This document shows, piece by piece, positions 14,910 to 33,371 of a stretch of 62,828 nt of DNA; within the stretch, counting starts at the first letter, position 1, and each line of letters starts with the position of its first letter. The translations under genes were made by a program, and so were the position numbers. Origin of the DNA: a virus (Duplodnaviria > Caudoviricetes). Below the pieces are notes generated by a model, which was not told the origin of the DNA, made no database searches, and saw only the letters and a list, made by a program, of their open reading frames with translations. The stretch spans positions 1-62,828 of the IMG/VR virus record IMGVR_UViG_3300003873_000011, one strand, 5' to 3'.

Positions 14910-14937
14910 ACAGAAATAATAATATAAGGAATTTAAT

Positions 14938-15519
14938 ATGGGTGGAAATATCAATGTACCAGCTTCAAGTAATGTTGTTGGCATACCTACAAATGATGTA
15001 AGTGGTTTAGGTTCTAGTAGTACAAGTAGTTGGCTGGACCCATTAAGTAACATTTTTGGTAATAAGAATATTATTGGTGGTCAAGAGCATGGTACAACAT
15101 ACCTAGATCCTACTACTGGTCAATTAATGATAAGTGCTTTTGGTCCAGATAAGTTAGCTCCTCAATCAGCTTATAAACCTTGGAACGCTAATCCAGCAAA
15201 CGCTAATAGCAAAGTTACATTCGATCCTTATGCTAAACAACCTGTCTTAGGTGGTTATGGGGATATGCTTCAATTAGGACTAGCTGGTCTTGGTGAGTGG
15301 ACTAATTATGGTATGTATCAAGAAGCTAAGAGGAATAATGCTTTTAACAAAGATCTAAAATCCTATCAGGTAAATGCAAGTACACAAGCTTATAATGATA
15401 ACATTGATAGTTATAATAAAAAACAAGGTTCATTAGCTGCTAAAAAGGCTATGTACTCTGCTCCAGGTACTGTACCTAAATATAAAAAACGTGCTAAATT
15501 GGAGGCATTTAATGCCTAA
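14938..15519 (+). CDS. Ejection protein (N4 gp52-like)
   Basis: Gly-rich hydrophobic LQLGLAGLG, then NYGMYQEAKRNNAFNK helix; no Cys; synteny. Confidence 0.6.
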   Translation: MGGNINVPASSNVVGIPTNDVSGLGSSSTSSWLDPLSNIFGNKNIIGGQEHGTTYLDPTTGQLMISAFGPDKLAPQSAYKPWNANPANANSKVTFDPYAKQPVLGGYGDMLQLGLAGLGEWTNYGMYQEAKRNNAFNKDLKSYQVNASTQAYNDNIDSYNKKQGSLAAKKAMYSAPGTVPKYKKRAKLEAFNA

Positions 15520-16867
15520 TTATGGTAATGGTCTATCCCAAGCGTTACAGGGAGTAATTGGAGTTGGTGGTGTACCTGTAGGGAATAGTTATAAGGGTAG
15601 CTCTAGCTTCTCAAATTATTTTAGTGCAATAGATAAAGCTCAGGCTCGTAAAGACGAGGCAATAGCTCGTAAACAAGCTGCTGATACTTTAGCTGCTAGA
15701 GATAGGGAATCTAAAAGACGTTATGATGAGAAGTTGATTAGACAAGACGATATTGTAGCTGCTAATGCTTCAGTTGGCGATTTAAATATAGCTCGTAATG
15801 TTACTGAGGCAGTTCCTCAACCAGCTATATATGCTTTAGATGATGCTATTGCCAAAGCTAAAGCTAATGGTACTCCTATGAAGTTAGGTGGGGGATTAAC
15901 CAGTATATCTAAAGATGTTACTACACCAGAACAATCTGAGTTTTTAGCTATGTATAATGGTATTAAAGGCTCTACTACTATGTCAGATGCTGAAAAGAGA
16001 GTAGCATTGAGAGAGGTAGGGGCTATACAGCAAGCTAGATTAGAGCAAGGTACTGATAACCCTACTAGTATAAAACCTTTAAAAGATGCTAGTAAACTTA
16101 GATGGCTAGATCATTATACTAATACTTTAGGTAATTCTGCTAATGAGAGTATTGTCAAGGCAGTAGGTGGTATTAAGAATTTCTTGGGTATTTCGTCTCC
16201 TGATGAAAGTGATACTAGACTTATCGCAATGGAGAAAGCTTCTAGTGATTACCAAAACAGTATAAAAGATAGTAACTTAACTCCTTTAGAACAAGTAGAT
16301 AAAATGGCTAAGGATGAACAGTTTAGATTAACTAATGCAAATAAAACTAGACTTAAAGTTACCGAGGACATTAAAGCTAAGAGTATTAAAGATGTTAATT
16401 CTGACCCTGGAATTATTAAGACTAAAGCTTTAATTGAAAAGATTGTAGCTAATTCCTCTAAAACTACTAAAAAAGAACGCAGAATAACTCCTGATGAATT
16501 TAGGAAATCTATCAGTGATGCTAGAAAAGAATTTAAAGCTAGTTTATCAGATAAGCTTACTGCTAGACAGAAAAACCTCAGGATTGCTAAGTTTAACGAA
16601 GTTGCTAGTGCAGAGCAGAAAGCGTTTAATCTTGAACAATCTAATATTGATAAGTATAAAAGAGAAGTAGCTAAGCTAGTATCTGAACAGAAATTTAAGA
16701 TATATGAAGATGACTTTAATAATGTTGCTAAGACAAAGCTAGCAGTACTAAACAATATTGCTAAGAAGGCTATACAAGATAGCAAAAACAAGTTAAAAAA
16801 GAAGGTGGATGCTTCCACTATTATTAAAAATAAGGCTCAGGCTAAAAAGTTCAATAGGGGTGATTAA
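15512..16867 (+). CDS. Ejection protein (N4 gp51 position)
   Basis: Helical, Ala/Lys-rich, no Cys; likely start 15512 after GGAGG; lies between gp52-like gene and vRNAP block. Confidence 0.55.
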   Translation: MPNYGNGLSQALQGVIGVGGVPVGNSYKGSSSFSNYFSAIDKAQARKDEAIARKQAADTLAARDRESKRRYDEKLIRQDDIVAANASVGDLNIARNVTEAVPQPAIYALDDAIAKAKANGTPMKLGGGLTSISKDVTTPEQSEFLAMYNGIKGSTTMSDAEKRVALREVGAIQQARLEQGTDNPTSIKPLKDASKLRWLDHYTNTLGNSANESIVKAVGGIKNFLGISSPDESDTRLIAMEKASSDYQNSIKDSNLTPLEQVDKMAKDEQFRLTNANKTRLKVTEDIKAKSIKDVNSDPGIIKTKALIEKIVANSSKTTKKERRITPDEFRKSISDARKEFKASLSDKLTARQKNLRIAKFNEVASAEQKAFNLEQSNIDKYKREVAKLVSEQKFKIYEDDFNNVAKTKLAVLNNIAKKAIQDSKNKLKKKVDASTIIKNKAQAKKFNRGD

Positions 16868-19800
16868 TGGGTGATAACTATGGGTTCAAGGATTGGGGTT
16901 CAGAGCCTCTTCCTATAGATACTACTGACTACGAAGCAGAAGCTAAAGCTGAGAGAGATAGAGAACTAAGACGTAAAGAAGCTGAACGTACTGGTGAATT
17001 ACTATATGAAGCTGATGGTACTTTAATACACGATAGTAATGCTATGATTAGAGCTAAAGAAGTTGTGAATGCTGCCAGCAGAGGTGCTGATTGGCTATTA
17101 GAAGCTTCTACTAATATTGCTGATTTTGGTCAAGGAAAGTGGTTAGATAATGCTCAGTTCGATGCTGAGAATAATGGTAAGCGATATTCCATGTCCAATA
17201 AAGACTTTATCAGTGCTAGAAACACTTCTACTAAAGACCTTATAAAACAATATAAAGATGCTGTTAATGACCCTAATGCTGGTGGTACTGTCTATACTTT
17301 AAAGAAGTTTGATGGTTATAATGAGGATGGTACAGAGAAGTTTCTTTATAAATATGGTTTTGCTAAAGTTGGAGCTGACCAAAGATATAACTTTGGTGGT
17401 ACCCCTCAAGATATACAAGACGGTTACGAGATTGTTGAAGAAAAGCGATTTACAGGAGCTGAAGATTGGGAGAAGACTTGGAATGCTAATCAAGATGTAC
17501 TAAATGCTAGAGCTATAGATTATGGGGGTACACCTGAGGGTGTATCAAGAGATAAGGCTTCTGGTGTTAATTTTGGTGATGGTTATACTGAACTACTCAC
17601 TAAAGACTTACTAGGTAATGATGTAGGTAAAACTCAAGAAGACTATGACAGGAATAGAGAATATAGTAAAAGACTTACTGCTGCTGCTAATGCTAGGTAT
17701 AAAGCTGGTTTATCTGATAGTGTTGTTGATGCTTTTCAATCTGGTGCTGCAAGTCTAATAGTTGACACTGCTGATTTTGTTCTTGATGTATTTACTCCTG
17801 GCGATAATACTATGCTTAATGATATCAAGAAGAAAGAAAATATAGATAAGTGGGTTGGTTATGATAGAACTAAATCTACTCAAGTACTAACTGATGCAGC
17901 AACTAATTGGAAGAATGGTAACTACTTTGATGCTATAACTGGTGTATTAACTGATCCTAATACTATGGCTGAGTCTTTACCTATGATGATCGGTATGTCC
18001 GTAGGTACTGGTAAGTTTACTGCTGCATCTAAGTTACTTAGTGCTGTTGAGAGAGCTAAAAAAACTGGTACTTCAGTTGAGCATATTGCTAAGTTGGAGA
18101 ATAGAGCTAGAAAGCTTATGACAGCTAAAGAGATTGGCAGATACGAAAAGTACCAAAATAGTAGTGCTTTACTTAAGACTTTAGATCACTTCTCTCGCAA
18201 ATCTGGTTATTATACTACTGTTGGCACTATGACTAATAATGTATTAGATGACAGAATAGCTGCTAAGTTAAAAGCTGGTGAAGACCCTAAGGTAGATATG
18301 TTTGAAGTTGCTAGTGTTTATGCTACTCAGTTAATACTTCTTTCTATTGATAAGATGTCATTCTCTAAAGCTACAGGTATTGGTGAGGGAGCTGGTGCTC
18401 TTAAGAAAGCTTTTAAAAGTTTAACTAAAGCAGAACAAAAACCTATTATATCTAAGTTGGTTAATAAGGCTACATCTATTGCTGAAGCTGGTGCTACTGA
18501 AGGTGTTCAAGAGTATATTCAGACTTGGGGTGAAATCTTAGGTGCTAACTTAGGTGTAGGTAATAAAACTATGTCCGATGTACTTGGTAATGAAGCTAAC
18601 CAGAAAGAAGCTCTTATGGGAGGTTTAGGTGGTATTGGTGCAGGAGCTCAGACTAGAGCTGTTACTGATATTCCTAGTACTGTTAAAGATGTTAATCAAG
18701 CTATTGCTGATAAAACTTATACTACTTTATCTAATAATGACTTAGAGTTCTCTTCTCATAATAATGATCTCCAAATTGCCGATTTAAAGGCTTTAAACGA
18801 TGAAGCTATGGATCGTATCAAAACTCTTAATAAAGAGGTTAAATTAGCTCCTGACCCTACTAAAACAGAAGAGATACAAAAGTTAATTGCTAGTCGTAAA
18901 ACTAATCTTGAGTCTATTAGGCAAATGGAGCTTACTCAAGAAAAAACTAAAGTTAAAAGTAAAGTTAATTCTGATGAGGAAGTAGATCTTGGTACTGATA
19001 AAGTTAAAGGTATAGCTGATACTACTAATGTACCTATACTCAAAGATATCTCTCAAGGTATGAATAACAAAAAAGTACTTAAAGAGTTTGAGAAGTACTC
19101 TACTGAGAAGTTGAGAAATGCAGTTACTAAGTTAAAATCTAAAGAACCTAGTGAAACTACTACAAAGACTTTAGCTATGTTAAACAAGGTTATCACTAGT
19201 AGAGAGAAAGGTGAATCTAAAGTATTTACTAAGAATTCTGTTGTCAATGATATATCTAAACTTGACTCTCTTACTGGTAAAGATAAGATTACAAAATTAA
19301 GTAGTATTCTATCAAATAATACAAAATTACCAGACCAAGAGACATTTGACAAGTTAAAGTCAATTATTAATGATGTTGATAACGTACAGTTAACTGATAA
19401 AGCTAGAACTATGTACAATAAAAGATTAGATACTATTAAAAGTTTAGGTTTTGGTGTAGATGATGTTGTTGAACCTGAACTTAAAGAAGAGCCTACTGAG
19501 TCTGAGATTAAAGATCCTACTCAGTACTCTGACGATGAGGTCATTAATCCTACTGTAAAAATCGTTAAAGATATTATTAAATCTTCAGCTGGTAGAGAGA
19601 AGACTGATCAGGAGAGGCAAATAATTTCTAACTCTATGATTAAGGGTAAAGACCAAACTGAGAGTGTTCACGATATTGCTAATAGTGAACTTCGAGATGA
19701 GATTAAAGAATCTGAGGTGGTTGTAGATACGCATCTTAATGAGGGTGCTATAACTAGCTTAAATAAGAAACTTAAAGAGTTGGAAGCTAAACCTAAAAGT

Positions 19801-20220
19801 GACTCTTTAGATTCTGAGATTAAAAAAGTTAAAGATCAGATTAGTGCTGAAGAGAGCAATACTATAAAGTACAGCAGTAATAACCTCAATAATCCTAGTG
19901 TAGAGTTGGTTAAAGCTATTCTTAGACGTAAAGCTGAAGGTAATACACTAACACAAAACCAAGAGTTTGTATTAGCTTCTGCTAGCAAGTCTGGTAACCT
20001 TAAAAAAGCTAAAGACCAGTTGTTAAAGTCTAACAGTAAAGCAGCTAAAGCGTATGTTAAGGGTTTACAGGGTATTGTAAGACATAGTGAAGCTAGCTCA
20101 GATGAAGATGTTTCTACTATAATACGTGACACATTACTAGATACTTTATCTTCTACTAACGAAGATTTAACAAAGAAGTCTACAGAAGAGTTAGTTATAT
20201 TATTAGGAGAAGGTTGTTAA
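16867..20220 (+). CDS. Split virion RNAP block, part 1 (N-terminal/membrane-interacting region, GIY-YIG-like domain)
   Basis: EAGATEGVQEYIQ...ALMGGLGGIGAG motif of large ejected proteins; the only Cys is the last residue. Confidence 0.65.
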   Translation: MGDNYGFKDWGSEPLPIDTTDYEAEAKAERDRELRRKEAERTGELLYEADGTLIHDSNAMIRAKEVVNAASRGADWLLEASTNIADFGQGKWLDNAQFDAENNGKRYSMSNKDFISARNTSTKDLIKQYKDAVNDPNAGGTVYTLKKFDGYNEDGTEKFLYKYGFAKVGADQRYNFGGTPQDIQDGYEIVEEKRFTGAEDWEKTWNANQDVLNARAIDYGGTPEGVSRDKASGVNFGDGYTELLTKDLLGNDVGKTQEDYDRNREYSKRLTAAANARYKAGLSDSVVDAFQSGAASLIVDTADFVLDVFTPGDNTMLNDIKKKENIDKWVGYDRTKSTQVLTDAATNWKNGNYFDAITGVLTDPNTMAESLPMMIGMSVGTGKFTAASKLLSAVERAKKTGTSVEHIAKLENRARKLMTAKEIGRYEKYQNSSALLKTLDHFSRKSGYYTTVGTMTNNVLDDRIAAKLKAGEDPKVDMFEVASVYATQLILLSIDKMSFSKATGIGEGAGALKKAFKSLTKAEQKPIISKLVNKATSIAEAGATEGVQEYIQTWGEILGANLGVGNKTMSDVLGNEANQKEALMGGLGGIGAGAQTRAVTDIPSTVKDVNQAIADKTYTTLSNNDLEFSSHNNDLQIADLKALNDEAMDRIKTLNKEVKLAPDPTKTEEIQKLIASRKTNLESIRQMELTQEKTKVKSKVNSDEEVDLGTDKVKGIADTTNVPILKDISQGMNNKKVLKEFEKYSTEKLRNAVTKLKSKEPSETTTKTLAMLNKVITSREKGESKVFTKNSVVNDISKLDSLTGKDKITKLSSILSNNTKLPDQETFDKLKSIINDVDNVQLTDKARTMYNKRLDTIKSLGFGVDDVVEPELKEEPTESEIKDPTQYSDDEVINPTVKIVKDIIKSSAGREKTDQERQIISNSMIKGKDQTESVHDIANSELRDEIKESEVVVDTHLNEGAITSLNKKLKELEAKPKSDSLDSEIKKVKDQISAEESNTIKYSSNNLNNPSVELVKAILRRKAEGNTLTQNQEFVLASASKSGNLKKAKDQLLKSNSKAAKAYVKGLQGIVRHSEASSDEDVSTIIRDTLLDTLSSTNEDLTKKSTEELVILLGEGC

Positions 20221-20221
20221 T

Positions 20222-23200
20222 ATGTCTTGTAAAATCAAAGAATTCAGAGAAAAGATAAATATTAAGATTAATGGGTTGTCTGCTAAAGAACAGACTAAGT
20301 ACACCTCTCTCTTAGGTAAGTTGGAAGCATTAACTAACCCTAAAGAAGAAAAAGGACAAACTAAATTAGAAGAGATTGTTAATCTATCCGAAAAAGACTT
20401 TAATAAAAAATACCCTAACATTAATATTAGTAGTGGATACACTGTAAAATCTAGCTCTAAAGTTACTAAATCTAAGCCTACTATAAGAGCTTCATTAGCA
20501 GCTAAACTTAAATCAGGTCACACTATCTCTACTAAGTCTTTAGCTACACTATCACAAGAAGATCAGTACGATACTTTAACTGAAGCTCTTTCTACTTTTA
20601 GTACCAATAAGATAACTAATGTTAACCTATCTAACTCTATCCGTAATAGTACTTTACCTGATAGAGTAAGGGATGTACTACTTCATGACTTAGCTAGTAA
20701 ACCTACTGAACTTGGAGCTATTAAGAGTGGTGAGAATATTATCATAGAAGACTCTACTCAAGACTATAACTACAAAGATGATACAGGTGAAAAGATTAAT
20801 AGAGGTAAATCTCATTTAAAAAAGATTGATCAGTCTAGTAAAAAGGTGAGTGAGTACGTCACTGAGATTGTTACAGATGAAAACTTTATCAGTGCTTTTT
20901 TAAGTGGTGCTATACCAAAAGACTATGACAACAACAAAGTACGTAATGAACAAGATAGACCTTGGCATCTTACAGGCAAGGATAAGGCTGTTAGAACTGA
21001 TTTTATGGATTCTATAAAGATGGCAGTAAAAAATGATAAACTTCCTATGTTCCCATCTAGTGATCCTCTATCTGTATCTAAAGCTACTAGATATGCTACA
21101 TTAGCTCTTGGTGGTATCATTGAAAGTATGAGTTCTAATATAGATAGAACTAAAGACTCTGACATTGATGGGGCTGATTTGATTAGACACTACGCTACTA
21201 GACAAGATACTACTAAGGAGGTTGGTAGAAAGATTGTTCATAGTTATGGTAAGAACATTGTACCTAATACTGAAAAAGGAAGTACTAAAGCTGATGTATC
21301 TAATTACTATATTAAACAAGGTGAAGTTGGACTAGATGTTTTAGATAAAATAGGTTATTTAGACACCGACTACAACCCAGAAGCTGGTGGTACTATATCT
21401 CACTTTGCTGTTGCAGATAGATTGGATATTGCTGGGCAACCTGTCCCTAAGGATATAGAGTTAGATAAAGACTCTATTCTTTTGTTAAAAGGTGTTTCTG
21501 ATAAATTAGAACCTGATGCCCTAGTTAAAGATTCTTCTATTTTCTTTAAAACTAAATTTGATACAATGTTAAAACCTATACTTAAAGCTCTAAATCCAGC
21601 TAGTAGGAAAGATCCATCATCTAGTAGGGTTAAAAAAGGTATTTTTAGTGATACGAATGAGCTTAGTGATACACAGCATAAGGTTATTAAAGATATCCAA
21701 GATATACCTTCAGAGATAGATAATGACTTCTACCAACTACTTAAAAAGGTTGTTGATGTTTCTGGTACTAATAGTGTTTCTCAATTACCTAAAGAACTTG
21801 ACTGGGTTCGTAACTTATTTGGTCTTAACATAAAAGAAAGTGGTATGACTTTCCTAGAAGCTTCTGAGAAAGGTGTTATTATAGGTAGACAAGCTAATGC
21901 TGATGCTTTACTAAATCATATAAGAACTTTAGAAGCTGACAATACTTTAAGCCCTTTTGAGAAAAGACAACAATTCTTTACTTGGTTCTCTGCTAGAAAT
22001 AACAGGATTCACGTCGATAACAACACTCTTAATCCTCAAGCAGATAAGATAGTCTCTAGGTTTATTTTAGGCTCTGTCTATACCACTTCTACTAAAAAAG
22101 AGAATATGGTCTTATTAAATGCTTTATCTGAAACTTTAACAAACAAAGGAGATGACTTTACAATTGACTATGAGGATATTCTATCTCCTAATAACACTAA
22201 AGAGTCTGTCATTTTAGAGGAACTTCTTAGTCGTTATAGTCGAGGTGGGTTACAAGCTTTACTTGAACCTGGTGTTTACGATGTGGAGAAATATGCTAGT
22301 ATTCTTAAGAATGGTGACAGTATTGCTGAGATTATGACTGCATTGCAAGGTGTAATTGATGTTAGAGTAGCTGTCCTTAAGGCACAAAAAGCTAATCCTG
22401 GTAAAGACATACATTGGCAAGATCTTAAAGTTAAGAGTAACTTTGCTCCTGAATTTGATGCTGCTGCTTCTGGTATTGTAAATAAAAATGTTAACTTCCA
22501 AGGTTTTATAGGTTCTAAAAAGGTGTCTAAGGAAGACCAACAAAAAGCTGCTGATGCAGGTAAAAAGGTTTATGAGACTTCAGATGATTTTGATAGACCT
22601 GATAGAATGTCTGAGAAATTAGATAAGTTAGTGTTTGGTAAAGAGGATGCTTATATTGCTCTTGTTACAGAAGTTATGAAAATCATAGATGATAGGAAAA
22701 ACTCTGACCATTTGACACCAGAGGAAGAGAAAAAGAATTTAGCCTCTGCTATGATTTTGCAGTTTATAGCCAAGTCCACTACTGAGTTTGATATTACTAA
22801 GCCTGAGCATAAAGCAGCTATTAGAAATACTGCTAAGTATCCAGTTATGACTAACTCTTATGGACAACTACTTGCTGCATTAAAGAAAGGTCTTGGTGAA
22901 GAGTTAGGTAAAGAACTACTCACAGCTTACCTGAAAGGTAAACCTGGTGAAGTTGATTATGATAATGCTGTATCTGTTTTTAAGGCTTTAGATATTGACT
23001 TAGATTCTTTAGGTAATAATTTTAAATCTGCTAAAGCAGTTAGTCTTAAAGTTGGTGAGAACTTTGGCACTATCTTTGGTGATGGACTTAAAATACTCAA
23101 TGCTGATTTAGATGCTGCTCAAAAAGTAGTTGACTCAGCTTATCGCTCTTTAGAGAAAGGTAGAAGTTTTTTAAGAGATGCTGGTGTTGATCACATAATA

Positions 23201-25678
23201 TCCCTTAGAAACCCATTTGATGTTACTCTAAAAGCTACTAGAGAGGTTGACGAAGAGATAGATCCAGATACTAATTTTAGTATTGAAAAACTTAAGTTAA
23301 TGGAACAGGAGATAGTCGGTGTAGCTAATAAAGCTGGTGTTGTACCTACTCAACTTATGACTAACCCTAACAAAACTTCTGGTGGTGTTGTTCCTTTACA
23401 CGCTATAGATAGTGCTATCTTACTTATATCATATATGAGAACTTATAAGCATTTTAGAGATGCTGGACAATTTAAAGGTTTGAATAGTTTGGCTATTCAT
23501 GATGCTATCAAGTCTAATCCTAAGATGTTAATAGAGTTCCAGAAACACTACCATGAAGCTACTTTAGATGTTGGTTTACACTACGATATTATTAGTGAAA
23601 TGAAGATTGAACTTCAGTATACAATAGATAAGATTAAAGAGTTAGGTGGAGATGTTTCTACAGAGAGTACTTTAAACAAATCCCTAGAGGTACTAGGCTA
23701 TAATGAAGGACTTAGGTTAGACTATAAAAAGAATAAGATTGAAGAACTCAGAAACAACCCTAACTTCCATATATTTGGATCTAAAGTTAGAGAGGCTGAC
23801 TTCCCTACTAAACCTATTGATGTTACTAACTATGGTCATTACACTGAGAGAGAGTTTGGTATTCTCTCTTCATATGATAAAAGAATGCAAGATAAAGCTT
23901 ATGAGCTATCTAAAGCCCAGAAAGACCAAAATAAACCTAAGTTTACTCCTAAAGTTAAAGTTGCACATCCTAGTAAAAGATTTGAAAAGTCTGAAGAACA
24001 CTATCAAGATCTAAAGTCTTTAGTTTCTAGTGGTAAACCTTTTGTAGTTTTATCTACTAGAACTAGTAATGATAGACAAATTGGTAATAAAGAGGTTATA
24101 ACTATTGGAGCTTCTATTAGACAAGGTACTAAAGAGATTAGTAAGAAGAGTTTAGTTTTACTTCCATCTGATGAAATAGCCTATGAAAGATCTAACCCTG
24201 AGATTAGTTATGATAGGTTAGCTAAATCTAAATCTCTCAAAGGTGAATTAGAGTACTCATATAAGGATTCTGACGGTAAAGAGGTCAAAGGGTATACTAG
24301 ACATCAAGACAACTCTTCTAAGGCTTTAGATAGCTTTATGAGTGAGTTAAACACTGAAGTCAAATCACTTGATAGTAGTGTAGATAATGTTACTTTAGTT
24401 GGTCATGATATTCTTAATAAAGATAGTAAGGTATTTGCCAATACATCTAAAGAATTTGCTAAACAAAATTTTAAATTAGTAGACACTTTACAAGCATTTA
24501 ACACTTACAACAAAATAACTAAAAAAGATAAGAACTATAACCCACAAAATCCTAATACATTATCTCAAAGTACAATGGGTAAAGAGTTTGGTTCAACCTC
24601 AGCTGATGGTATAGATAATCTCATCACTATTGTAAATAACTTTGGTGGTATAGTTAAAGAGAAAACTAACTCTTTCATCTATGATTTCCAAAAGGCTGTT
24701 GGTGTTGAAGATAAAGCTTCTGAGCTAGGTATTTTACTTGATAGCTTAGAGGATCAAGACCCTGAGAGTAAGACCTATATAGATAATATAAAGTATGCTT
24801 TGGGTACTAAAAATGGTTTAGCTCCTCATCGTAAAGAGTTTAAATATAATATGAAAGACGATCAGATATTTATCAAAGATGATATTACCTTTGATGATAC
24901 TAAGAGTTTTTTAAAGTATATTGATCATGAGATTCAACATAGTGTTACAGCTTCTTATATACATAAATCTTATCGAGGGTTACTTAAAGAAGGTACTAGT
25001 CAATCTTTTAAAGTACTGCAAAATATGTACAGTAGATTATATAACAATATAACCCTTAAAGATGGTGATAAGCCTGAGAGTGATTTTTTAGCTAATGCAC
25101 CAAAACTACCAGGTAATGATATACTAGGTCAATCTGTTAGAGATAGGTTATTGTATATTAAAGATTTTGGTGACCAAGGTGAGAAAGATATAGCCATGTC
25201 TGAGTTTGTAGCTATTTATAGAAGTAATCAAGAATTTAGAAACTATCTTGGTACTAGTCTTATCTTTAAAGAGAAGAAGACAGGAACTTTTATGAAAGCC
25301 ATTAAAGACATTATTAATAAGGCTTATAAAATATTTACTGACTTAGAGCTACAAAATATTACTGTTGGTGTATTTAATACAGCTTTAGATAATCTAGTTA
25401 TTGAGAGTAATGTTAAAGTTAAACCTACTGAAAAAAAGAAAGCTAAAGAGAATAAATCTAAACCTACTGAATCTAAGCCTAAAGAAGATACACTTACACC
25501 CAAGGATAGAATTATAATTAAAGAGTCCGTCATACAAGGTGTTAAAAATTTAGAATTTAAGGCTAGTTCAAGTACTGACTCTAAAGAAGCATTAGATATA
25601 ATTAATGATATATTATCTGACCTCTCTGATAGTTCAGATATAAAGATCCAAGCTAATGACATAACTAAGGAGTGTTGA
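20222..25678 (+). CDS. Split virion RNAP block, part 2: single-subunit (T7/N4-type) RNA polymerase
   Basis: RNNRIH...NPQADK, motif A EFDAAASG, motif B RNTAKYPVMTNSYG (Rx3Kx7YG), PLHAIDS, motif C AIHDA; HEIQH zincin-like motif near C-terminus; Cys only at residue 3 and last residue. Confidence 0.9.
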   Translation: MSCKIKEFREKINIKINGLSAKEQTKYTSLLGKLEALTNPKEEKGQTKLEEIVNLSEKDFNKKYPNINISSGYTVKSSSKVTKSKPTIRASLAAKLKSGHTISTKSLATLSQEDQYDTLTEALSTFSTNKITNVNLSNSIRNSTLPDRVRDVLLHDLASKPTELGAIKSGENIIIEDSTQDYNYKDDTGEKINRGKSHLKKIDQSSKKVSEYVTEIVTDENFISAFLSGAIPKDYDNNKVRNEQDRPWHLTGKDKAVRTDFMDSIKMAVKNDKLPMFPSSDPLSVSKATRYATLALGGIIESMSSNIDRTKDSDIDGADLIRHYATRQDTTKEVGRKIVHSYGKNIVPNTEKGSTKADVSNYYIKQGEVGLDVLDKIGYLDTDYNPEAGGTISHFAVADRLDIAGQPVPKDIELDKDSILLLKGVSDKLEPDALVKDSSIFFKTKFDTMLKPILKALNPASRKDPSSSRVKKGIFSDTNELSDTQHKVIKDIQDIPSEIDNDFYQLLKKVVDVSGTNSVSQLPKELDWVRNLFGLNIKESGMTFLEASEKGVIIGRQANADALLNHIRTLEADNTLSPFEKRQQFFTWFSARNNRIHVDNNTLNPQADKIVSRFILGSVYTTSTKKENMVLLNALSETLTNKGDDFTIDYEDILSPNNTKESVILEELLSRYSRGGLQALLEPGVYDVEKYASILKNGDSIAEIMTALQGVIDVRVAVLKAQKANPGKDIHWQDLKVKSNFAPEFDAAASGIVNKNVNFQGFIGSKKVSKEDQQKAADAGKKVYETSDDFDRPDRMSEKLDKLVFGKEDAYIALVTEVMKIIDDRKNSDHLTPEEEKKNLASAMILQFIAKSTTEFDITKPEHKAAIRNTAKYPVMTNSYGQLLAALKKGLGEELGKELLTAYLKGKPGEVDYDNAVSVFKALDIDLDSLGNNFKSAKAVSLKVGENFGTIFGDGLKILNADLDAAQKVVDSAYRSLEKGRSFLRDAGVDHIISLRNPFDVTLKATREVDEEIDPDTNFSIEKLKLMEQEIVGVANKAGVVPTQLMTNPNKTSGGVVPLHAIDSAILLISYMRTYKHFRDAGQFKGLNSLAIHDAIKSNPKMLIEFQKHYHEATLDVGLHYDIISEMKIELQYTIDKIKELGGDVSTESTLNKSLEVLGYNEGLRLDYKKNKIEELRNNPNFHIFGSKVREADFPTKPIDVTNYGHYTEREFGILSSYDKRMQDKAYELSKAQKDQNKPKFTPKVKVAHPSKRFEKSEEHYQDLKSLVSSGKPFVVLSTRTSNDRQIGNKEVITIGASIRQGTKEISKKSLVLLPSDEIAYERSNPEISYDRLAKSKSLKGELEYSYKDSDGKEVKGYTRHQDNSSKALDSFMSELNTEVKSLDSSVDNVTLVGHDILNKDSKVFANTSKEFAKQNFKLVDTLQAFNTYNKITKKDKNYNPQNPNTLSQSTMGKEFGSTSADGIDNLITIVNNFGGIVKEKTNSFIYDFQKAVGVEDKASELGILLDSLEDQDPESKTYIDNIKYALGTKNGLAPHRKEFKYNMKDDQIFIKDDITFDDTKSFLKYIDHEIQHSVTASYIHKSYRGLLKEGTSQSFKVLQNMYSRLYNNITLKDGDKPESDFLANAPKLPGNDILGQSVRDRLLYIKDFGDQGEKDIAMSEFVAIYRSNQEFRNYLGTSLIFKEKKTGTFMKAIKDIINKAYKIFTDLELQNITVGVFNTALDNLVIESNVKVKPTEKKKAKENKSKPTESKPKEDTLTPKDRIIIKESVIQGVKNLEFKASSSTDSKEALDIINDILSDLSDSSDIKIQANDITKEC

Positions 25679-25682
25679 TTAA

Positions 25683-28600
25683 ATGGCATGTAAGATAAAA
25701 ACTTTAGAGGATATGATTCGTGAAAAGGTTGACTCTTTACGTAGTTCTAAACCTTCTAAAAAAAATGAAGCTGTTATTGCTGAATTAAATGGATTTTTAG
25801 GAGGTTTGCGTACACCTACTAAGCCTCAAGTTGGTCCTAGAGTACCTACTCTTAAAGAAAGAGCTGCTATAGCTAGACTTGAAACACAGAGAGTAGCTAA
25901 AGAGAAGGAATTAGCTTTAGCCCAAGAGAAAGCAGCTGTGGCTTTAAAAGAACAACAACTAGCTAAAGAACTAGAAGCTAAATTAGCTAGAGAACAGAAA
26001 GTTATAGAAGAGAGTAAAAAAGCTAAAGAAGAAGAGGTGCGTAAAGCTGAAGAGGAAGCCTCTAAACTAAAAGAAGAGATTAAAAGTAGTCAAGCAAAAG
26101 CTAGAGCTGCTAAGTTATCTTCAGATAAAGCTATGAGAGAGAGAGATGCTAAAGAAGCTAGAGCCAATAATCTTCTTAGAAGAGAAAAGCTATTAAATGA
26201 AAAGAATAAGGCAATAGCAGCTCAAAAAGAAGTTGACATACTAACTAAAAAAGCTAAGGTTGTGGAAGCTAAGGTTGTTAGACAAGCTAAAGTTACATCT
26301 CTAAAAACTAAAGCTGTTAATGCTATTCAAGCTATTATCTCTAAAATTAAAGAGATTATACGTAGTCTTATCAGCAAAATTAATGGTTTAAAGTTTAAAC
26401 CTAAAAAACAAAAAACTTTTGAAGAGAGTTTACCTGAGTACTACACTAAGCTATTTGATACTATTGATAAAAAACAAAACATAGTACTAGATATGGATAT
26501 AAACTTTGCTAAAAAAGTTATCTATGATGAGATGGTTAAAGGTCAAATGGTTAAAGGTACTGCTTACAAGAATAAGATACATTTACCTGATTTTGAAGCA
26601 CTTAAAGCAGACAAAGGTGAGCTTAAATCCTTTATAAAGACAATTATGGGAGATAAACCTAGTTCTTTGATAACACCTGAGACTATTACTACTCTAATAG
26701 ACCAACATATTGAAGCTGAGAAGAAGCACAGTGTTAAACTGCATGAAGCTATACACGTAGCAACTGTCCAATTTATGAAAGCTAATCCTAATGACCCAAA
26801 AACAGTAGCTATCGAGAGCTTATTTAAAAAGATGCAGATTGAATCTGAAAAAGATGGTAGTATACTGAATTCAGCTAATAATGCATACTGGAAGACCAAT
26901 GTTTTTGAGTTTATTGCTGAAGCTCTTAGTCACGAGGTTCTAATTAAAGAAATGAATAAAATTATGGTAGGTAAAGAAAGTTTACTGCATAGGCTTATTA
27001 ATGTCTTTAGAAGAATTTTAGGTATCACTAATAATAGTGCTACAGATGTTCTGTTGAATACTGTTCTTAAAATGAATGATTTTAAATCTCCGAATAATAA
27101 CTATACTGAAGACTATTTAAAAGTACCTAAAGGCTCTGTTATGGAAATGAATAGGGTTGATGAGTACTTAGGTATGGTTAATTCTAATAAAGGTCATGGT
27201 ACTAATATTTCCGATATAATAGAGAATATTAAATTCTTTGGTGGCCAAGACCAATTTCTCATTAAGGTTGGTAAGACTGAGGGTGAGTTTATGAATTATG
27301 TTAGAGCTAAGTTTGGTGGCAAACCTTTAGCTGATTCAGAAGTTGCAATTGATTCTAAAACTAGGGTTGAATTGGCTAAGATACCTAACACTTTACCTTT
27401 AATGTACTCTAATGATACCTCTAAGACTACTAAAAAAGGTTTGTACATCAATGTGAAAGAACCTATATCTCCTACTGAAACTTACCTAAATGAGTATTTA
27501 AAAGATGTTAAACCTACTGATAGTTTCTTAAATGGGTTAACTCCTAAAGAGCTTTTAGATGGTGTTAAAGGAGTTGTAGATACTTCTTTAGTAAATTCTA
27601 CTAGAGTTAGTATCATTCAGTATAATAACATTAAGGATACTGTTATAAGTACTGTTGCAGAGAGATTTCTTGATGGTAAAGCATTAACTGATGATATTGT
27701 TGAAGATATATCTAATTCTGAGAGTAAGCGTAAAGATGTTACTGTAACCAGAGATAAAGACGGTAACGTCATTAAATTAGATAACTCTAATACAGAGATT
27801 AAAAATAAGAATACTAAGAGTACTACAGAAACTACAGAGGATAATACCAGTATAGATACTTCTGAGAATAATAAAAGTAACACTAAAGAAGTTAGTAGGG
27901 CTACTTCTAATACTGAAAACTCTAATGTAGAGACTAATGAGATTATTAACAGTAACAGTAATTCTGATAGTACCTCGAGAGGCAATTCGTCTACTACTGA
28001 GTATGATATAGATGAGACACACACTATTAAAAATTCTAAGGTTGTTACTAATAAGACTGTAAATCAAAGTGGTACTAATACTTCTGAAGATGGTGGAGGT
28101 AATATCACACATAAATCAGGTACTATAAAAAGGCATTATATTTTAGAGAATTCTTTACAAATTAACACTTTAATTACTAATGGTTCTATTACTCAAGAAC
28201 AAAGATCTTCTAGTAAACCTATACTAGATAATCTCCTTAGTACAGATACTACAACTAAATCAGAAACTTTTGAGTATAAAGGTACTAATATAGATATTAG
28301 TAGTTCTGATGGAGTGAATTACAGTTTTATGATTTATCAAGAAGGTAAAGATTCTTTGCTTGTAGACTTAAAAGAGGGTATTTTAACTAAACTCTTTACT
28401 CCTATTACTAATGAGATATTTCAAGATTTTGAAACAGCTATGAATAAGTTAGGTATTAGTTATTTTGATTTCGATTCTGAGTTTTCTATCGAGAGTAACC
28501 AAAGTAAGTATGATAAAAAGAAGTATGATGAAGCTATGGTTGAGTACAATAAAAGTACTTTTAATGGTGTTGAAATGGCTAAAGATGATGTTTTAAGTAA

Positions 28601-29375
28601 TGTGAAATCAGAACTAAAGAAAGTAAATTCTGCTGTTAATATTGAGTTTGTTGTTGATGGTACTAATTTTAAGTTTGATTCTTCGTACGGCCCTTCTGGA
28701 GGAATATATTTTGAAGCCACTGAACGTAGGAAACCTACTCTAGGTTCTAATTCTAAATTTTTACCAACCCTTCGTTACATCCTACAGTTTGCAGATGCTC
28801 GAAATAAGATAAATACAGATCCTGATAACATTCCCATAGTTAAGGCTTTTAGTGATCTTGGTATTGATGTAAACGCAACTTACAGAGCTTTTTTACCTTT
28901 CGCTAAATCTCAGTATGTGAACTATCATATGCGTAGGTATAAGGAGTCTTCTGTACCTCTTGCTAGTGCTTTAGGTTCTATATCCTCTGAATCTCCTAAG
29001 TTAAGCACCACTAAAATCTCAGGTGATGTGATGTATAGGGTGGAGGTATACCTCTCCAATGGTAAATTGCATACAGCTACCATTGCCGCTCCACTTCCTA
29101 CAGTAGTGAAGTTAAATCCTCGTTACACTATAAATGAATTTATATCTCATGACCTAAATGGTGTTTTAGATAAGTATGATGTAGCCAAACTACCTAATGT
29201 GAATAAGGTACTTAAAGAATTTGGATCTTCTTATGACAAACTTATAAAAGACTATTCTGAGGCTATTAAAAAAGACCCTATAAAAGAGGAAGCTAGTTCC
29301 CTAGTTGTGCAGTCTACTATCAATACCTCCAATACAGAGAATATGGTGTATAATGCTGTAAAAGGATGTAACTAA
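25683..29375 (+). CDS. Split virion RNAP block, part 3 (coiled coil, zincin-like domain, S/T/N-rich tract)
   Basis: HEAIH...EFIAEALS; Cys only at residue 3 and penultimate residue. Confidence 0.65.
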   Translation: MACKIKTLEDMIREKVDSLRSSKPSKKNEAVIAELNGFLGGLRTPTKPQVGPRVPTLKERAAIARLETQRVAKEKELALAQEKAAVALKEQQLAKELEAKLAREQKVIEESKKAKEEEVRKAEEEASKLKEEIKSSQAKARAAKLSSDKAMRERDAKEARANNLLRREKLLNEKNKAIAAQKEVDILTKKAKVVEAKVVRQAKVTSLKTKAVNAIQAIISKIKEIIRSLISKINGLKFKPKKQKTFEESLPEYYTKLFDTIDKKQNIVLDMDINFAKKVIYDEMVKGQMVKGTAYKNKIHLPDFEALKADKGELKSFIKTIMGDKPSSLITPETITTLIDQHIEAEKKHSVKLHEAIHVATVQFMKANPNDPKTVAIESLFKKMQIESEKDGSILNSANNAYWKTNVFEFIAEALSHEVLIKEMNKIMVGKESLLHRLINVFRRILGITNNSATDVLLNTVLKMNDFKSPNNNYTEDYLKVPKGSVMEMNRVDEYLGMVNSNKGHGTNISDIIENIKFFGGQDQFLIKVGKTEGEFMNYVRAKFGGKPLADSEVAIDSKTRVELAKIPNTLPLMYSNDTSKTTKKGLYINVKEPISPTETYLNEYLKDVKPTDSFLNGLTPKELLDGVKGVVDTSLVNSTRVSIIQYNNIKDTVISTVAERFLDGKALTDDIVEDISNSESKRKDVTVTRDKDGNVIKLDNSNTEIKNKNTKSTTETTEDNTSIDTSENNKSNTKEVSRATSNTENSNVETNEIINSNSNSDSTSRGNSSTTEYDIDETHTIKNSKVVTNKTVNQSGTNTSEDGGGNITHKSGTIKRHYILENSLQINTLITNGSITQEQRSSSKPILDNLLSTDTTTKSETFEYKGTNIDISSSDGVNYSFMIYQEGKDSLLVDLKEGILTKLFTPITNEIFQDFETAMNKLGISYFDFDSEFSIESNQSKYDKKKYDEAMVEYNKSTFNGVEMAKDDVLSNVKSELKKVNSAVNIEFVVDGTNFKFDSSYGPSGGIYFEATERRKPTLGSNSKFLPTLRYILQFADARNKINTDPDNIPIVKAFSDLGIDVNATYRAFLPFAKSQYVNYHMRRYKESSVPLASALGSISSESPKLSTTKISGDVMYRVEVYLSNGKLHTATIAAPLPTVVKLNPRYTINEFISHDLNGVLDKYDVAKLPNVNKVLKEFGSSYDKLIKDYSEAIKKDPIKEEASSLVVQSTINTSNTENMVYNAVKGCN

Positions 29376-32308
29376 TGGCTTGTAAACCTATAGATAAGAA
29401 ACAATTAAAAATAGATATGACTGCTCAGTTAAAACATGATAATCCTCACTTAACTGATGCAGAGCTTAGTAGAGAAGTAGAGATAATCTATGATAGGGCT
29501 ATAAAGAAGCTTAATGAGCCTAAATCAGGCTTTAATGAAGCTCTTACACATAAGATATACGAAGGACAAAAACCTCCTTATATTGTCCCTGTAAATGGTT
29601 TATGGGATACTGTACAAGGTCTTACCACTTATGCTATCGGAGCTGGTATTATTAAACCTATTAAGTATGTTGCTGATACTATACCTTTTAAAGATACTGC
29701 CGACTATCTAGTTGTAAAACCTGCTAAATACATATTTAACTCTGATTGGGCACAAGACTATCATAAAAAAGGTATGTCTAACTCAGAAGGTATTTATCAT
29801 AAAACAGTAGAAAACTTAAAGAATAGATCTACTCCTAGTGATTTTGTTAAGAGGGTAGCTTCTTATATGCAATTAACTGAAGGTGTAGATTACAAAGCTA
29901 TGAGTGACCAACTATCTAAGTTAGGTGAAGCTGCTAGAGAAAGGAATGAAATAGATAGAACTATTTTAAATAAGGCTTTGAAGTCATTTAGAAAAGTAAC
30001 TAAGGATTATACAACTAAGCAGAAGAAGCAATTATCTTCATTATTTAACTTCTCTCACATACACCTAGTATCTGACGATAGTATATCTACAATGTCTGAT
30101 ATTGATAGTAAAATAGACTCTTTAACAAAAGAACTTAATAGTACTATCCAAAATACTAAACTATTAGAGTATGGTATAGGTAAAAGTACTAAAGAATTAG
30201 CTAACTTTTATCACACTAGAAAGTTGGCTAATCTTGTTGATGAAGGTTGGAGTGAGAGAGATATTTATAGTACTTTAAGAGGTAAGTATTTAGAAACTTA
30301 CATGACACTTGTAGCTTACCAACAATTAAAGTTAGGTGGTAAAGAACAATTAGCTACCTTAAATAAGTTTAAATCTGATGGTAAAGAAAGTGGTATTTAT
30401 ACTGAACTTAAGATACTATCTAGGTCTGCTTCAATGATAGGGAACGAGATTGATGTTGATATGAGAGGTAAATCAATGTTTAAGCTAGATAATAAGACTG
30501 GTAGAAGACTTCACTTTAAGAAGAACTACAAGTTTGAAACTGTAATGTCTAAAGCTGAGTTAGCTAAATTAGATCCTAAAGATAACTGGAAAGAGTTAAG
30601 ACCGTATAAGTTAGGGCAGGTAGGTGTTTATGTTAAGGAGAGGGCTAGTTTTGGTCAAGAGTCTGGTATTGTGTCTAGTACAACTGTTCCTGATGATGGT
30701 ATTCATATATCCCATGACACTTACTTAAAATATAAGTTTAATCTAAAAGACAATAACATAGAGAAGAGAATGTATGATAAAAAACCTAGGTATGTACTTA
30801 GATTAACTCAAGATATGTTAGACCAATTAGAAATAGATGATGAAGTTCCTAGTGCTATGTATCGTTCTTTTGCTCATAATGTAGAAATATCTGATAGTAT
30901 GAGCACTATTAAACATATTATCAACCATCAAACTAGGAGGGCTTACCGACCTTCTGAATTAGCTAAAATAGAGTCTGATTTGAAGAAAGGTATTAGACCT
31001 ATGTTTCTTAATTTTGATTTTAGTGCTGATTCTTTAGTAGATTTAAAAGATTACCCTTTGGTTAAGGAGAATTATACTTCTACAGCTAAAAGGAAAGATG
31101 GTACTGGTACAGGTATAACTAGTACACTAGAGCTACCAAGATATGCTACTATGGTACATAAAGATATTAGAGATCAAATGTTAGGTTACTCTAAAGATCC
31201 TATATTTAAAAATAGGAACAGGTACTTATTTAAGGCTGAACAACTCTTACGAGATGCTGTTACCATGTTTTCAGTACATGTTGCTATTGTTAACCCTATT
31301 AAGATAGGTATGGATATTGTATCAAATGCCAGTATTCTAGCTATTCATCAAGTACCTCTTAGGTCTATCAAGAAGTATAGTACAGAAGCTATCAAACTAC
31401 ATAAAGAGTTCTCTAAACTATCCCAAGAGAAGATTATCTTAAGTATTACTTTAAGAGGTCTTACTGAGAAAGATTCTGCTTATAAAGCTACTAAAGCTAG
31501 ATATGATAGAGTTGTAAAAAAAGTCAATAACCATGAGTTTAAAGCTGCATCTGATAATGGTTTTTTACAGTCTTTATCTACACAAATGCTTGTAGGTGAT
31601 AGTGAAGCTGTTGAAGGTCTTCAAAGTAGAGTTGACGAACTCTTGTCTAAAGTTGATAACTACCCTAAATTTGCTAAAATACTCCAATCTATCTCTGATA
31701 CTGGACCATCTATAGTAGATTTACTTGAGTATGCTAACAGTAAAGTAACTGGTGATGGTACTATAAGTACTGAGCTAGAACGCATATCTAATAAGTTTAG
31801 AACATTCAAAGATAATAAACAACATTTAGCTTTTGTTAGTGAGATTTTAGCTGTTCCTGGTCAATCTGAGTTAGTTCGTTATGGTGGTGCTATGGTTACT
31901 ATGGTGGATTTAATAGCTAAATGGACTCTATATAAGCATACTATGGATGAATCTATAGGTTCTAGTCAATCTGTTAAAGATAGAGAAGATAAAGCTATTG
32001 ATGTAGTTCAAGGTAGTTTTATTGACTATAGAGCAGCATTGCCAGAAGAGATTGACCAACTTAAAGATTTAGGTTTATTTATGTTTCCTCATTTTACTAT
32101 GAGAATACAGAAAGCTATCTGGTCTATGTTATATAGAAGAACTTTGTCTACTGGTGTTACCTATGCAGGTATGAATGAGCTTACTAATGTAGGTAATACC
32201 CATATTATTAACTCTAACATTTGGGATAAGAAGTTAGCTCATTTAGACCCAGATAATCCTAATATCTTAGGACCTTATACATTCTACGAGCTGATGGGAC
32301 TTAAATAA
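29375..32308 (+). CDS. Split virion RNAP block, part 4 (N4 vRNAP C-terminal-like domain)
   Basis: MVHKDIRDQMLGY, DLIAKWTLYKH and FIDY...LKDLGLFMFPHFTMRIQK resemble the N4 vRNAP C-terminus; the only Cys is residue 3. Confidence 0.7.
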   Translation: MACKPIDKKQLKIDMTAQLKHDNPHLTDAELSREVEIIYDRAIKKLNEPKSGFNEALTHKIYEGQKPPYIVPVNGLWDTVQGLTTYAIGAGIIKPIKYVADTIPFKDTADYLVVKPAKYIFNSDWAQDYHKKGMSNSEGIYHKTVENLKNRSTPSDFVKRVASYMQLTEGVDYKAMSDQLSKLGEAARERNEIDRTILNKALKSFRKVTKDYTTKQKKQLSSLFNFSHIHLVSDDSISTMSDIDSKIDSLTKELNSTIQNTKLLEYGIGKSTKELANFYHTRKLANLVDEGWSERDIYSTLRGKYLETYMTLVAYQQLKLGGKEQLATLNKFKSDGKESGIYTELKILSRSASMIGNEIDVDMRGKSMFKLDNKTGRRLHFKKNYKFETVMSKAELAKLDPKDNWKELRPYKLGQVGVYVKERASFGQESGIVSSTTVPDDGIHISHDTYLKYKFNLKDNNIEKRMYDKKPRYVLRLTQDMLDQLEIDDEVPSAMYRSFAHNVEISDSMSTIKHIINHQTRRAYRPSELAKIESDLKKGIRPMFLNFDFSADSLVDLKDYPLVKENYTSTAKRKDGTGTGITSTLELPRYATMVHKDIRDQMLGYSKDPIFKNRNRYLFKAEQLLRDAVTMFSVHVAIVNPIKIGMDIVSNASILAIHQVPLRSIKKYSTEAIKLHKEFSKLSQEKIILSITLRGLTEKDSAYKATKARYDRVVKKVNNHEFKAASDNGFLQSLSTQMLVGDSEAVEGLQSRVDELLSKVDNYPKFAKILQSISDTGPSIVDLLEYANSKVTGDGTISTELERISNKFRTFKDNKQHLAFVSEILAVPGQSELVRYGGAMVTMVDLIAKWTLYKHTMDESIGSSQSVKDREDKAIDVVQGSFIDYRAALPEEIDQLKDLGLFMFPHFTMRIQKAIWSMLYRRTLSTGVTYAGMNELTNVGNTHIINSNIWDKKLAHLDPDNPNILGPYTFYELMGLK

Positions 32309-32516: not shown

Positions 32517-32572
32517 TTAATTCCTTGTTTTGTTTGTTTATTTTTTATGTTTGTCTCCTTTCTTTTTTATTA

Positions 32573-32581
32573 TGTTATAAT
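32573..32581 (+). promoter_or_regulatory. Extended -10 promoter for transglycosylase gene
   Basis: TGTTATAAT about 30 nt upstream of ATG 32610. Confidence 0.5.
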
Positions 32582-32609
32582 TGTATTAAAATTATGTGAG
32601 GTACTTTAT

Positions 32610-33371
32610 ATGCAACAACCTATTCAAGGTCTATCTAGTATGAACCAAGCTATGCAAGGTATTCAAGGTGTGCAAGGTGTACAAGCGTCAGGGTTTACTC
32701 CTAGTAGGCATACTTTTCAATACAACCCTCAACCTAGAGGTATACGATCTGTAGGTATTAACACTAGTTTCAATAATCAAGCTAACCCTACTTCTGTCCA
32801 AACAATCACTAACCCTAACACAGACTCTTATCTCAAACAATTAGCTAATGTAGAGTCTCAAGGTAAGTATGACGCATATAACAAGGGTTCTGGTGCTTAT
32901 GGTAAGTATCAGTTCATACCTAGTACTGAACAAGCCTATATGAAAAAACTAGGTTACACTCAAGCACAAGCTAGAACCCCAGAAGGGCAAGAGGCTATGA
33001 TTAGGAGGCTTACTGCTGATAATAGAGCTGGACTAATTAAAGCTGGGTATAAACCTACTAATATGAATTTGTGGTTAGCCCATAATCAAGGTTTAGGTGG
33101 AGCTAAAGCTATACTTAGTGGTGGTAACGTTAATATGCATAATATACGAAGTAACATACCTAAAGGTAAAGGTACTGTACAGGACTACCTAAATTATTGG
33201 GGTAGTAGGTTTGGTGGTAGTAACCAAACTTACGCCCCCCCTACCAATCCTACTGTTAATAAAGTTACTACTTACAAACCCTCTATACCTATAGAAGCAG
33301 GGTTGACTCAAACTGATTATGATGAACTGGACTCTATTATGAGGGAGTATGGGTTAGACACTAGGGGTTAG
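32610..33371 (+). CDS. Lytic transglycosylase/lysozyme-like protein (probable virion-associated muralytic enzyme)
   Basis: LANVESQG (catalytic Glu), SGAYGKYQFIPST, LAHNQG; likely start 32610 after GAGG. Confidence 0.8.
   Translation: MQQPIQGLSSMNQAMQGIQGVQGVQASGFTPSRHTFQYNPQPRGIRSVGINTSFNNQANPTSVQTITNPNTDSYLKQLANVESQGKYDAYNKGSGAYGKYQFIPSTEQAYMKKLGYTQAQARTPEGQEAMIRRLTADNRAGLIKAGYKPTNMNLWLAHNQGLGGAKAILSGGNVNMHNIRSNIPKGKGTVQDYLNYWGSRFGGSNQTYAPPTNPTVNKVTTYKPSIPIEAGLTQTDYDELDSIMREYGLDTRG

Follow-up and report, generated by a model that had tools for sequence, protein, structure and literature searches.

Paired cysteines at the gene breaks of a split N4-type virion RNA polymerase: a candidate disulfide-linked chain of ejection proteins

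How could a virion RNA polymerase, which in coliphage N4 is one long polypeptide, reach the host cell as a unit when it is divided over several genes? The question is raised by a virus record of 62,828 nucleotides (IMG/VR record IMGVR_UViG_3300003873_000011; 62.8 kb, 33% G+C, CheckV completeness 55%), which was analysed at its full length and is here called the window. Its portal, capsid and tail genes are of the N4 type, as are its DNA polymerase, primase and helicase, and the source is a marine-type N4-like phage. After the portal, capsid and tail genes, which is the N4 gene order, lies a polymerase block (16867-32308) of four abutting open reading frames (ORFs), all on the plus strand. Part 1 (16867..20220, 1117 amino acids, aa) carries the N-terminal domain (NTD, the injection domain) and a tail of about 245 aa, and part 2 (20222..25678, 1818 aa) the RNA polymerase (RNAP) core and a C1-like HExxH region. 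Part 3 (25683..29375, 1230 aa) is an extra cargo module with a coiled-coil region, a second HExxH and a remainder without assignment, and part 4 (29375..32308, 977 aa) is the C-terminal domain (CTD), equivalent to CTD-C2 of N4 gp50. The ORF coordinates and the gene order bear out the original prediction, a reading of the DNA made before any database search, which had described four ORFs of these lengths at the position of gp50. It is this place in the genome, downstream of the portal, capsid and tail genes, that makes the polymerase pieces putative virion proteins that are ejected into the host.

There are exactly six cysteines among the 5142 residues of parts 1-4, and all of them are at most three residues from an end that faces a junction. 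Part 1 has its only cysteine as the last residue (1117 of 1117, codon 20215) and none at the N-terminus, part 2 has residues 3 and 1818 of 1818 (codons 20228 and 25673), part 3 has residues 3 and 1229 of 1230 (codons 25689 and 29367), and part 4 has residue 3 of 977 (codon 29381) and none at the C-terminus. The same six codons had been found by eye in the original prediction and read as the topology of a linear chain, and the computed count confirms both. For six randomly placed cysteines, the probability that all would fall in the 18 positions at most three residues from the six junction-facing ends is P = 7e-16. A near absence of cysteine is a trait of the gp50 family and is found here as well, with no internal cysteine in any of the four parts. 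The other trait, one polypeptide of about 3500 aa, is not found; there are four genes in three frames, each with its own start, and for this reason we class the block as a split variant and not as a typical member of the gp50 family. The start coordinates of the four ORFs are 1, 2, 0 and 2 modulo 3, which gives a frame change at each junction, and all downstream genes start at their own ATG with a purine-rich stretch in front. The pattern of gp27 and gp26 of cyanopodophage A4, in which the upstream protein has its sole cysteine at the C-terminal tip and the downstream protein has its own at the N-terminal tip, is also present in the window. As for other genes, there is no cysteine in any of the seven large ORFs of the virion module that precede the polymerase (8505-16867; capsid, tail and gp51 position), and the replication genes on the opposite strand have 0-7 each.

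Is the pairing a peculiarity of this window, or does it follow the gene breaks of such polymerases? Loci with genomic context were taken from a phage collection (L002, L003, L061), from IMG/VR (L004, L005, L058) and from one metagenome scan of 52 loci, 31 of them of at least 6 kb. They contain 48 abutting pairs of large ORFs, of which 31 (26 distinct) are breaks inside the polymerase, and at every one of these 31 there is a cysteine 1-9 residues from the upstream end and another at residue 3-7 of the downstream protein. In 59 unique fragments (90,839 aa), 62 of the 63 cysteines are at most 10 residues from an end. The two classes of pairs were first separated by the cysteine criterion and the split was then checked by homology. 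Among the 17 other pairs the upstream gene is never NTD-like (0/17) and the downstream gene nearly always is (16/17), so these are junctions between the preceding gene and the first polymerase fragment. They are equally tight, with gaps of 0-57 nt, and none of the 17 has a cysteine at either facing end. The window has such a junction of its own. The gene at the gp51 position (15491..16867, plus strand, 458 aa, no cysteine), a homolog of which precedes the polymerase block in L058, overlaps the start of part 1 by 1 nt (TAATG), and since there is no cysteine at either facing end, the junction at 16867 serves as an internal negative control.

The homologs of part 4 tell the same from the downstream side. 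In the best 150 of 212 (243,831 residues in total) there are 92 cysteines, 89 of them at residues 3-7 and one per protein; P0036 and P0097 hold three internal ones between them, none is found in the last 10 residues, and the six homologs of at least 2900 aa in this set are free of cysteine. The pairing is also seen where the fragments are not neighbours. In two loci (L014, 2-13201; L016, 2-13240) the RNAP-core and CTD fragments, identified by their coordinates on the A5 profile (2-988 or 146-950 versus 979/981-2057), are about 7 kb and about 3.9 kb apart with 3-7 cysteine-rich genes between them, and still the core fragments end in ...KKCLNT and ...KICLT (cysteine at -4 and -3) and the CTD fragments begin with MALAGKNGC and VALKNC (cysteine at 9 and 6). 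Three cultured phages belong here too. Alteromonas phages PT11-V19 and R22Y have proteins of 1000 and 2082 aa with cysteines at -4 or -5 and at 6, and Alteromonas phage AD45-P1 (NC_021532; L061, 30624-42306) has two uninterrupted ORFs (2495 and 1409 aa), whose cysteines are at -3 and 4. L017, with the upstream tail ...NPGCNGK, is a partial case. Conservation of the terminal cysteines in homologs, on which the original prediction had staked itself, is thereby found at every break that could be inspected, and we regard it as practically certain that the cysteine pair has a junction-specific role at the level of the protein.

If the cysteines belong to the breaks, they should be missing where the neighbours are fused, which had also been predicted, and this is what we see. 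The relatives of parts 1 and 2 that we found are fused in all three cases (P0159, 2887 aa; P0160, 2664 aa; P0161, 2714 aa), each with a single cysteine, which is at the C-terminal tip. P0160 is the protein of G001, the closest complete relative (114 kb). What corresponds to junction 1, between parts 1 and 2, is in these proteins an acidic linker without cysteine; compared to them, the window has gained the tail of about 245 aa, ending in cysteine, and a head of about 35 aa, beginning with MSC. In the same way, the C-terminal piece of the split L004 (2197 and 960 aa) is 43% identical to P0061, which is fused and cysteine-free. As junction 1 is present only in the window and the corresponding proteins are fused in three out of three relatives, its origin looks recent, judging from these comparisons.

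The places where the genes are broken are not arbitrary. In N4 gp50 the NTD is followed by a linker of about 100 residues (907-1007), the RNAP domain (1007-2101), a linker of 23 residues (2102-2123), CTD-C1 with the HExxH (2124-2375) and CTD-C2 (2376-3500), an arrangement described as "beads on a string" in the available part of PMC13434306. Breaks between NTD and RNAP are found at junction 1 of the window, in the A5-type loci and in PT11-V19; breaks between RNAP and CTD, just before the HExxH, in L014, L016 and AD45-P1 (the last by fragment length); and breaks between C1 and C2, about 100 residues past the HExxH, at junction 3 of the window (between parts 3 and 4), in G001, in L004 and in the class of about 900-1000 aa. 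These sites match gp50 907-1007, 2102-2123 and 2375/2376, and the gene breaks thus replace flexible linkers or domain boundaries. A FastTree phylogeny of the C-domain (136 rows, 89 labelled) requires at least 14 changes of architecture, 6-8 of them forced by well-supported branches, which is suggestive of several independent polymerase breaks. The chain in the window is the longest among the loci examined and the only one with three links.

That the pieces really are an N4-type polymerase rests on several lines of comparison. Part 1 matches positions 111-661 of the profile of PHROG 2206 (virion RNA polymerase) and is homologous to the first fragments of two-part polymerases; its residues 1-890 share 51-73% identity with the N-terminal portion of the fused relatives of 2664-2887 aa, in which its tail of about 245 aa has no counterpart. 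Part 2 aligns over residues 190-1188 to residues 989-2002 of P0006 (E 4e-62), the closest one-piece relative, which has 3568 aa and no cysteine, and over residues 1557-1725, including the HExxH (HEIQH at residue 1569), to P0006 2434-2596. Its motifs SARNNR, FDAAASG, R..K..YGQ and IHD fall on invariant columns of the A5 profile (GRNxR, DATASG, R..K..YGQ and HD), which we take to be the catalytic motifs of a single-subunit (T7-like) RNA polymerase. The alignment and the motifs place the RNAP core in part 2, and part 4 is the counterpart of the gp50 C-terminus, both as had been proposed. Part 4 matches positions 3273-3374 of the PHROG 2206 profile and aligns over residues 118-938 to P0006 2674-3522 (E 3e-94), and its family profile (A2) matches N4 gp50 at 3367-3451 (E 1.8e-13). 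An AlphaFold2 model of part 4 (pLDDT 70, pTM 0.70) had significant Foldseek matches only to N4 gp50 entries, 9pnt (E 1.8e-8) and 9pnr. In this model residues 1-6 are of low confidence and are followed by helices at 8-22 and 28-46, and the predicted structure is compatible with a flexible, cysteine-bearing tip.

Other searches were less productive. Pfam gave no family in any of the four parts, and the sequences of the PDB gave nothing with part 2 (phmmer), A1 (part 3), P0006 or A5. Against the phage collection there was no match for part 2 by tblastn or for the 17-kb block by megablast. Scans of viral_contigs with part 2, P0002, P0004 and the alignments A4 and A6 found no relatives, while A3 gave two loci and P0003 one. 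When the four parts were compared all against all by BLAST, only matches at the level of low complexity were seen.

Part 3 does not fit into the ancestral protein. Its long N-terminal region looks like a coiled coil, a second HExxH lies at residue 354, and the protein gives no match in Pfam or PDB and has no counterpart in P0006. In G001 the chain goes directly from the fused protein of 2664 aa to a part 4 homolog of 984 aa, with no part 3, and a search of the whole G001 record for part 3 found none, although this search had no positive control and its empty answer is weak. By these comparisons, part 3 is an extra inserted module that was not in the ancestral polymerase, and the polymerase proper is split in three with one inserted link. 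The split into four that was originally described is therefore right for the genes; the polymerase itself is divided three ways, and part 3 is an insert that is missing from the polymerase chain of G001. Part 3 occurs in at least two other assemblies, and these two homologs have exactly two cysteines each, at residue 3 and second or third from the end; P0002 is 54% identical to it, and P0001, 97% identical and from an independent assembly, keeps both cysteines. The longest contig listed is one of 114,156 bases for P0161 and for P0002 alike, and the two therefore probably form a three-link chain.

There are also hints of where the new head of part 2 came from. Its first 40 residues (20222-20341) resemble the heads of part 3 (25683-25802) and of P0002 beyond the shared MxCK (0 of 500 shuffles reach the score), there is no comparable likeness to the head of part 4, and the head region of part 2 is absent from the fused relatives, a hint that this head arose by copying from the family of part 3. 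Among the tails of parts 1, 2 and 3 no significant likeness is seen (z at most 2.9 over many pairs). An alignment of part 3 (A1) to A5 by hhalign gave a weak match around the HExxH with a probability of 2.7%, and we make no claim that the two HExxH regions are homologous. A predicted complex of the part 3 tail (981-1230) with the part 4 head (1-480) scored 0.10 against a mark of 0.32, which counts neither for nor against binding.

The best explanation of these findings as a whole is in our opinion a chain of four proteins, linked head to tail by disulfides in the virion, and we consider it likely. An N4-type virion RNA polymerase would then be delivered as four proteins: the NTD, the RNAP core with C1, the inserted module and CTD-C2. 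The C-terminal cysteine of one piece and the N-terminal cysteine of the next would form an intermolecular disulfide in the virion, which by analogy to A4 is probable, and the disulfide would stand in for the missing peptide linker at a domain boundary. Separate pieces need some tie if they are to be packaged and ejected jointly, and a tie placed at the tips keeps the thread unbranched; the linked product would be essentially linear, like beads on a string. The CTD is required for encapsidation and the NTD for injection (cited in the accessible text of PMC3821669), and the model for gp50 is that it traverses a channel of about 35 Å as an extended chain led by the NTD (PMC13434306). In a linked chain, equal amounts of the pieces would be co-packaged and the chain could be drawn through the tail channel of about 35 Å in order, with the NTD first. 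The remainder of the chain, being free of cysteine, would give no wrong cross-links, and in the reducing cytoplasm the links could open. Whether the link really has the purpose of packaging the pieces together and threading them in order, to be released by reduction, we consider an even question. The head-to-tail joining had been proposed beforehand, and the conservation of the cysteines, their loss on fusion and the disulfide of A4 speak for it, while the chemistry of the bond, the threading and the release by reduction are what we infer.

Could the cysteines be explained without any link between proteins? The simplest such explanation is that the stops are mistakes of sequencing or assembly within a single continuous gene, the cysteines being coincidental. 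RefSeq labels the AD45-P1 polymerase region only "potential frameshift" and one study has concatenated split virion RNA polymerases as presumed miscalls, but breaks with starts and cysteine pairs recur in dozens of independent contigs and in three cultured phages, P0001 reproduces part 3 from another assembly, and the frame changes at every junction in the window. The original prediction named erroneous stops as something that would speak against it, and the recurrence and the frame changes leave such an origin a negligible chance. It is just as hard to believe that the effect is one of translation, with the cysteine codons as part of a ribosome-binding site or coupling signal, or as take-off and landing codons for a hop or read-through. 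Each C-terminal TGT in the window does follow a purine-rich stretch and precede the next ATG, the six cysteine codons are all TGT and the two of each junction are 13-16 nt apart, and read-through has been suggested in print for split virion RNA polymerases. Among the 26 distinct junctions, however, the two codons differ (TGT versus TGC) in 13, the distance between them ranges over 13-43 nt with all three phases represented, the residues flanking the cysteines are not conserved, and every downstream gene has its own start. The pairs are kept with the genes 4-7 kb apart (L014, L016), and none of the 17 equally tight junctions to the preceding gene has a cysteine at its facing ends. The non-adjacent cases and the control junctions also remove the caveat, raised from the start, that the C-terminal codons double as the ribosome-binding site of the next gene.

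The remaining two alternatives accept a role for the pair in the protein. In one of them the cysteines do something other than form a lasting link, for instance a transient check during assembly or a bond made only in the oxidising periplasm, and the pieces are non-covalent partners; conservation shows selection on the pair and says nothing about the existence or timing of a bond in the virion. One-piece polymerases, on the other hand, avoid cysteine, which the literature ascribes to the passage through the periplasm, and free thiols at the tips would carry the same risk; moreover, the bond in A4 is present in the virion before ejection. We find this explanation unlikely. In the other, the cysteines bridge the pieces via a shared metal ion (Zn or Cu) or by other reversible thiol chemistry, with the same topology and purpose. 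The strict pairing and the position at the tips fit any link of two thiols, the cytoplasm is a reducing environment, and neither the window nor G001 yielded a phage oxidoreductase (thioredoxin or glutaredoxin). Two thiols alone are nevertheless a weak metal site, no conserved histidine or cysteine neighbours are visible in the tips listed, and the one pair of this kind with a solved structure is a disulfide, so that a metal bridge seems quite improbable. Programmed bypass or read-through, mentioned above, fails on the codons, which are not matched in 13 of 26 distinct junctions, on the two non-adjacent cases and on the separate ATGs. Two more candidates were rejected. A split intein has no Pfam family to show for it, and with 0-1 residues after the C-terminal cysteine and 2 before the N-terminal one there is no room for intein halves. 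A lipoprotein-type N-terminal cysteine is out since the cysteine at residue 3 leaves no signal peptide.

A number of points weigh against the disulfide-linked chain and its generality. The disulfide, for the phage of the window as for any N4-like phage, is a putative one taken from A4 by analogy. Phages assemble in the reducing cytoplasm, and searches of the window and of G001 for thioredoxin and glutaredoxin genes found none; a search for Erv1 gave no signal in any control genome and carries no weight. A4 gp27 and gp26 have no detectable relation in sequence or fold to the polymerase pieces, so the precedent is an analogy only, and two cysteines could alternatively hold a metal ion. The tree behind the independent breaks was made with FastTree only. 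Internal cysteines do occur, the three in P0036 and P0097 and one in L005. Among the best 150 of the 212 part 4 homologs, 61 have no N-terminal cysteine, and while 15 of these are at least 2400 aa, 24 are below 800 aa and 5 more lack an M start, 17 are of 800-2400 aa with an M start. Following these up through their cluster mates only, we could explain three as truncations or miscalled starts: P0004 clusters at 90% identity with a cysteine-free protein of 3374 aa, P0135 is contained in a cysteine-free protein of 3125 aa, and P0108 has a start miscalled just after the cysteine, its cluster mate P0158 being six residues longer and beginning with MSLKLC. The other 14 stand as possible exceptions, and the rule may not be universal. 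The miscall in P0108 means that gene callers can hide an N-terminal cysteine, and a census of this kind needs re-calling of starts. A cysteine-free fragment in L027 also belongs on this side, but it starts 190 nt from the contig end with stops in all frames upstream, and we deem it uninformative.

Two further observations concern other genes of the window. The neighbouring ORFs at 49244-50146 and 50196-51635, both on the minus strand, match the DNA primase profile phrog_2135 at positions 476-702 and 40-386, and by these matches the DNA primase seems also to be split into two genes. The ORF directly after the polymerase block (32547-33371) encodes a protein with a hydrophobic N-terminus, one region of which resembles a transglycosylase (phrog_4067, E 2e-14); this protein might degrade the wall, either as part of the virion or in lysis.

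For N4-like phages it is an open question how an enzyme of 3500 residues comes to be packaged and then threaded through a tail of 35 Å (PMC13434306). The cysteine pairs point to the order and stoichiometry of the chain and support the model of a linear thread during ejection. They also make a simple sequence test for a genuine break in a polymerase gene, and the rule can be tested in cultured marine phages with split polymerases. A wider hypothesis, which we put forward tentatively and with more doubt than belief, is that terminal cysteine pairs are a general and repeatedly evolved connector of injected phage proteins, a disulfide in place of a peptide bond, that would allow breaks at any domain boundary, plug-in cargo modules and an ordered delivery released by redox. 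If so, the delivery train could grow in length by added links, with part 3 as an apparent plug-in module, and should such links let new cargo modules join the chain, which part 3 suggests, they would be a natural design for redox-released protein delivery.

Parts of this picture have been in print, and parts have not. The original prediction supposed that the arrangement was not described. In the full-text literature we found no statement of a junction-cysteine rule for N4-like polymerases, with supplements and possible cysteine tables (for example in the DEV survey) lying outside that search, and to this extent the supposition stands; the A4 disulfide, and in AD45-P1 both a split polymerase and a misreading of its cysteines, were on the other hand already published. 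Split virion RNA polymerases in print have been taken as miscalls or read-through, and filters for proteins above 2500 aa discard them. Disulfides between subunits are documented in the virion of crAss001, in tail and portal-vertex proteins, in the part of that literature available. The closest parallel to the cysteine tips is cyanopodophage A4 (Anabaena phage A-4L), in which cryo-electron microscopy of the pre-ejectosome has resolved a disulfide between gp27 Cys1715 and gp26 Cys5 (PNAS 2025, PMC12002296, the text available). These too are ejection proteins of adjacent genes, of 1717 aa with a sole cysteine at 1715 and 1114 aa with a sole cysteine at 5 in the A-4L record. They show no detectable homology to the polymerase pieces (the best hidden Markov model E-value is 0.03, and no A4 chain is among the Foldseek matches with E at most 0.001), and A4 has one link in contrast to the chain of three in the window. 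The accessible text of that paper does not mention RNA polymerase and presents the bond as a local stabilising bond and not as a general rule. In the mature A4 virion the pair was resolved as a disulfide.

Another close parallel is Alteromonas phage vB_AmaP_AD45-P1, a cultured phage with a polymerase in two genes (ORF127/ORF126), although as a chain of two pieces and not four; its authors read the cysteines as a sign of non-injection, and in the available text of PMC3821669 their terminal position is not reported. The one-piece forms to which all of this must be compared are coliphage N4 gp50 and Pseudomonas phage DEV gp71, both cysteine-free virion RNA polymerases as far as the accessible text of PMC13434306 and PMC11445570 goes. 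On the same sources, they share with the window the order of the domains (NTD, RNAP and a CTD of an HExxH-bearing C1 and a large helical C2), the position in the genome, the near-total avoidance of cysteine and a "beads on a string" model of ejection, and they differ in that each is one polypeptide of about 3400-3500 aa, its domains joined by flexible peptide linkers. The window has instead of those linkers gene breaks with cysteine tips, a total of 5142 aa and one extra module in the chain.

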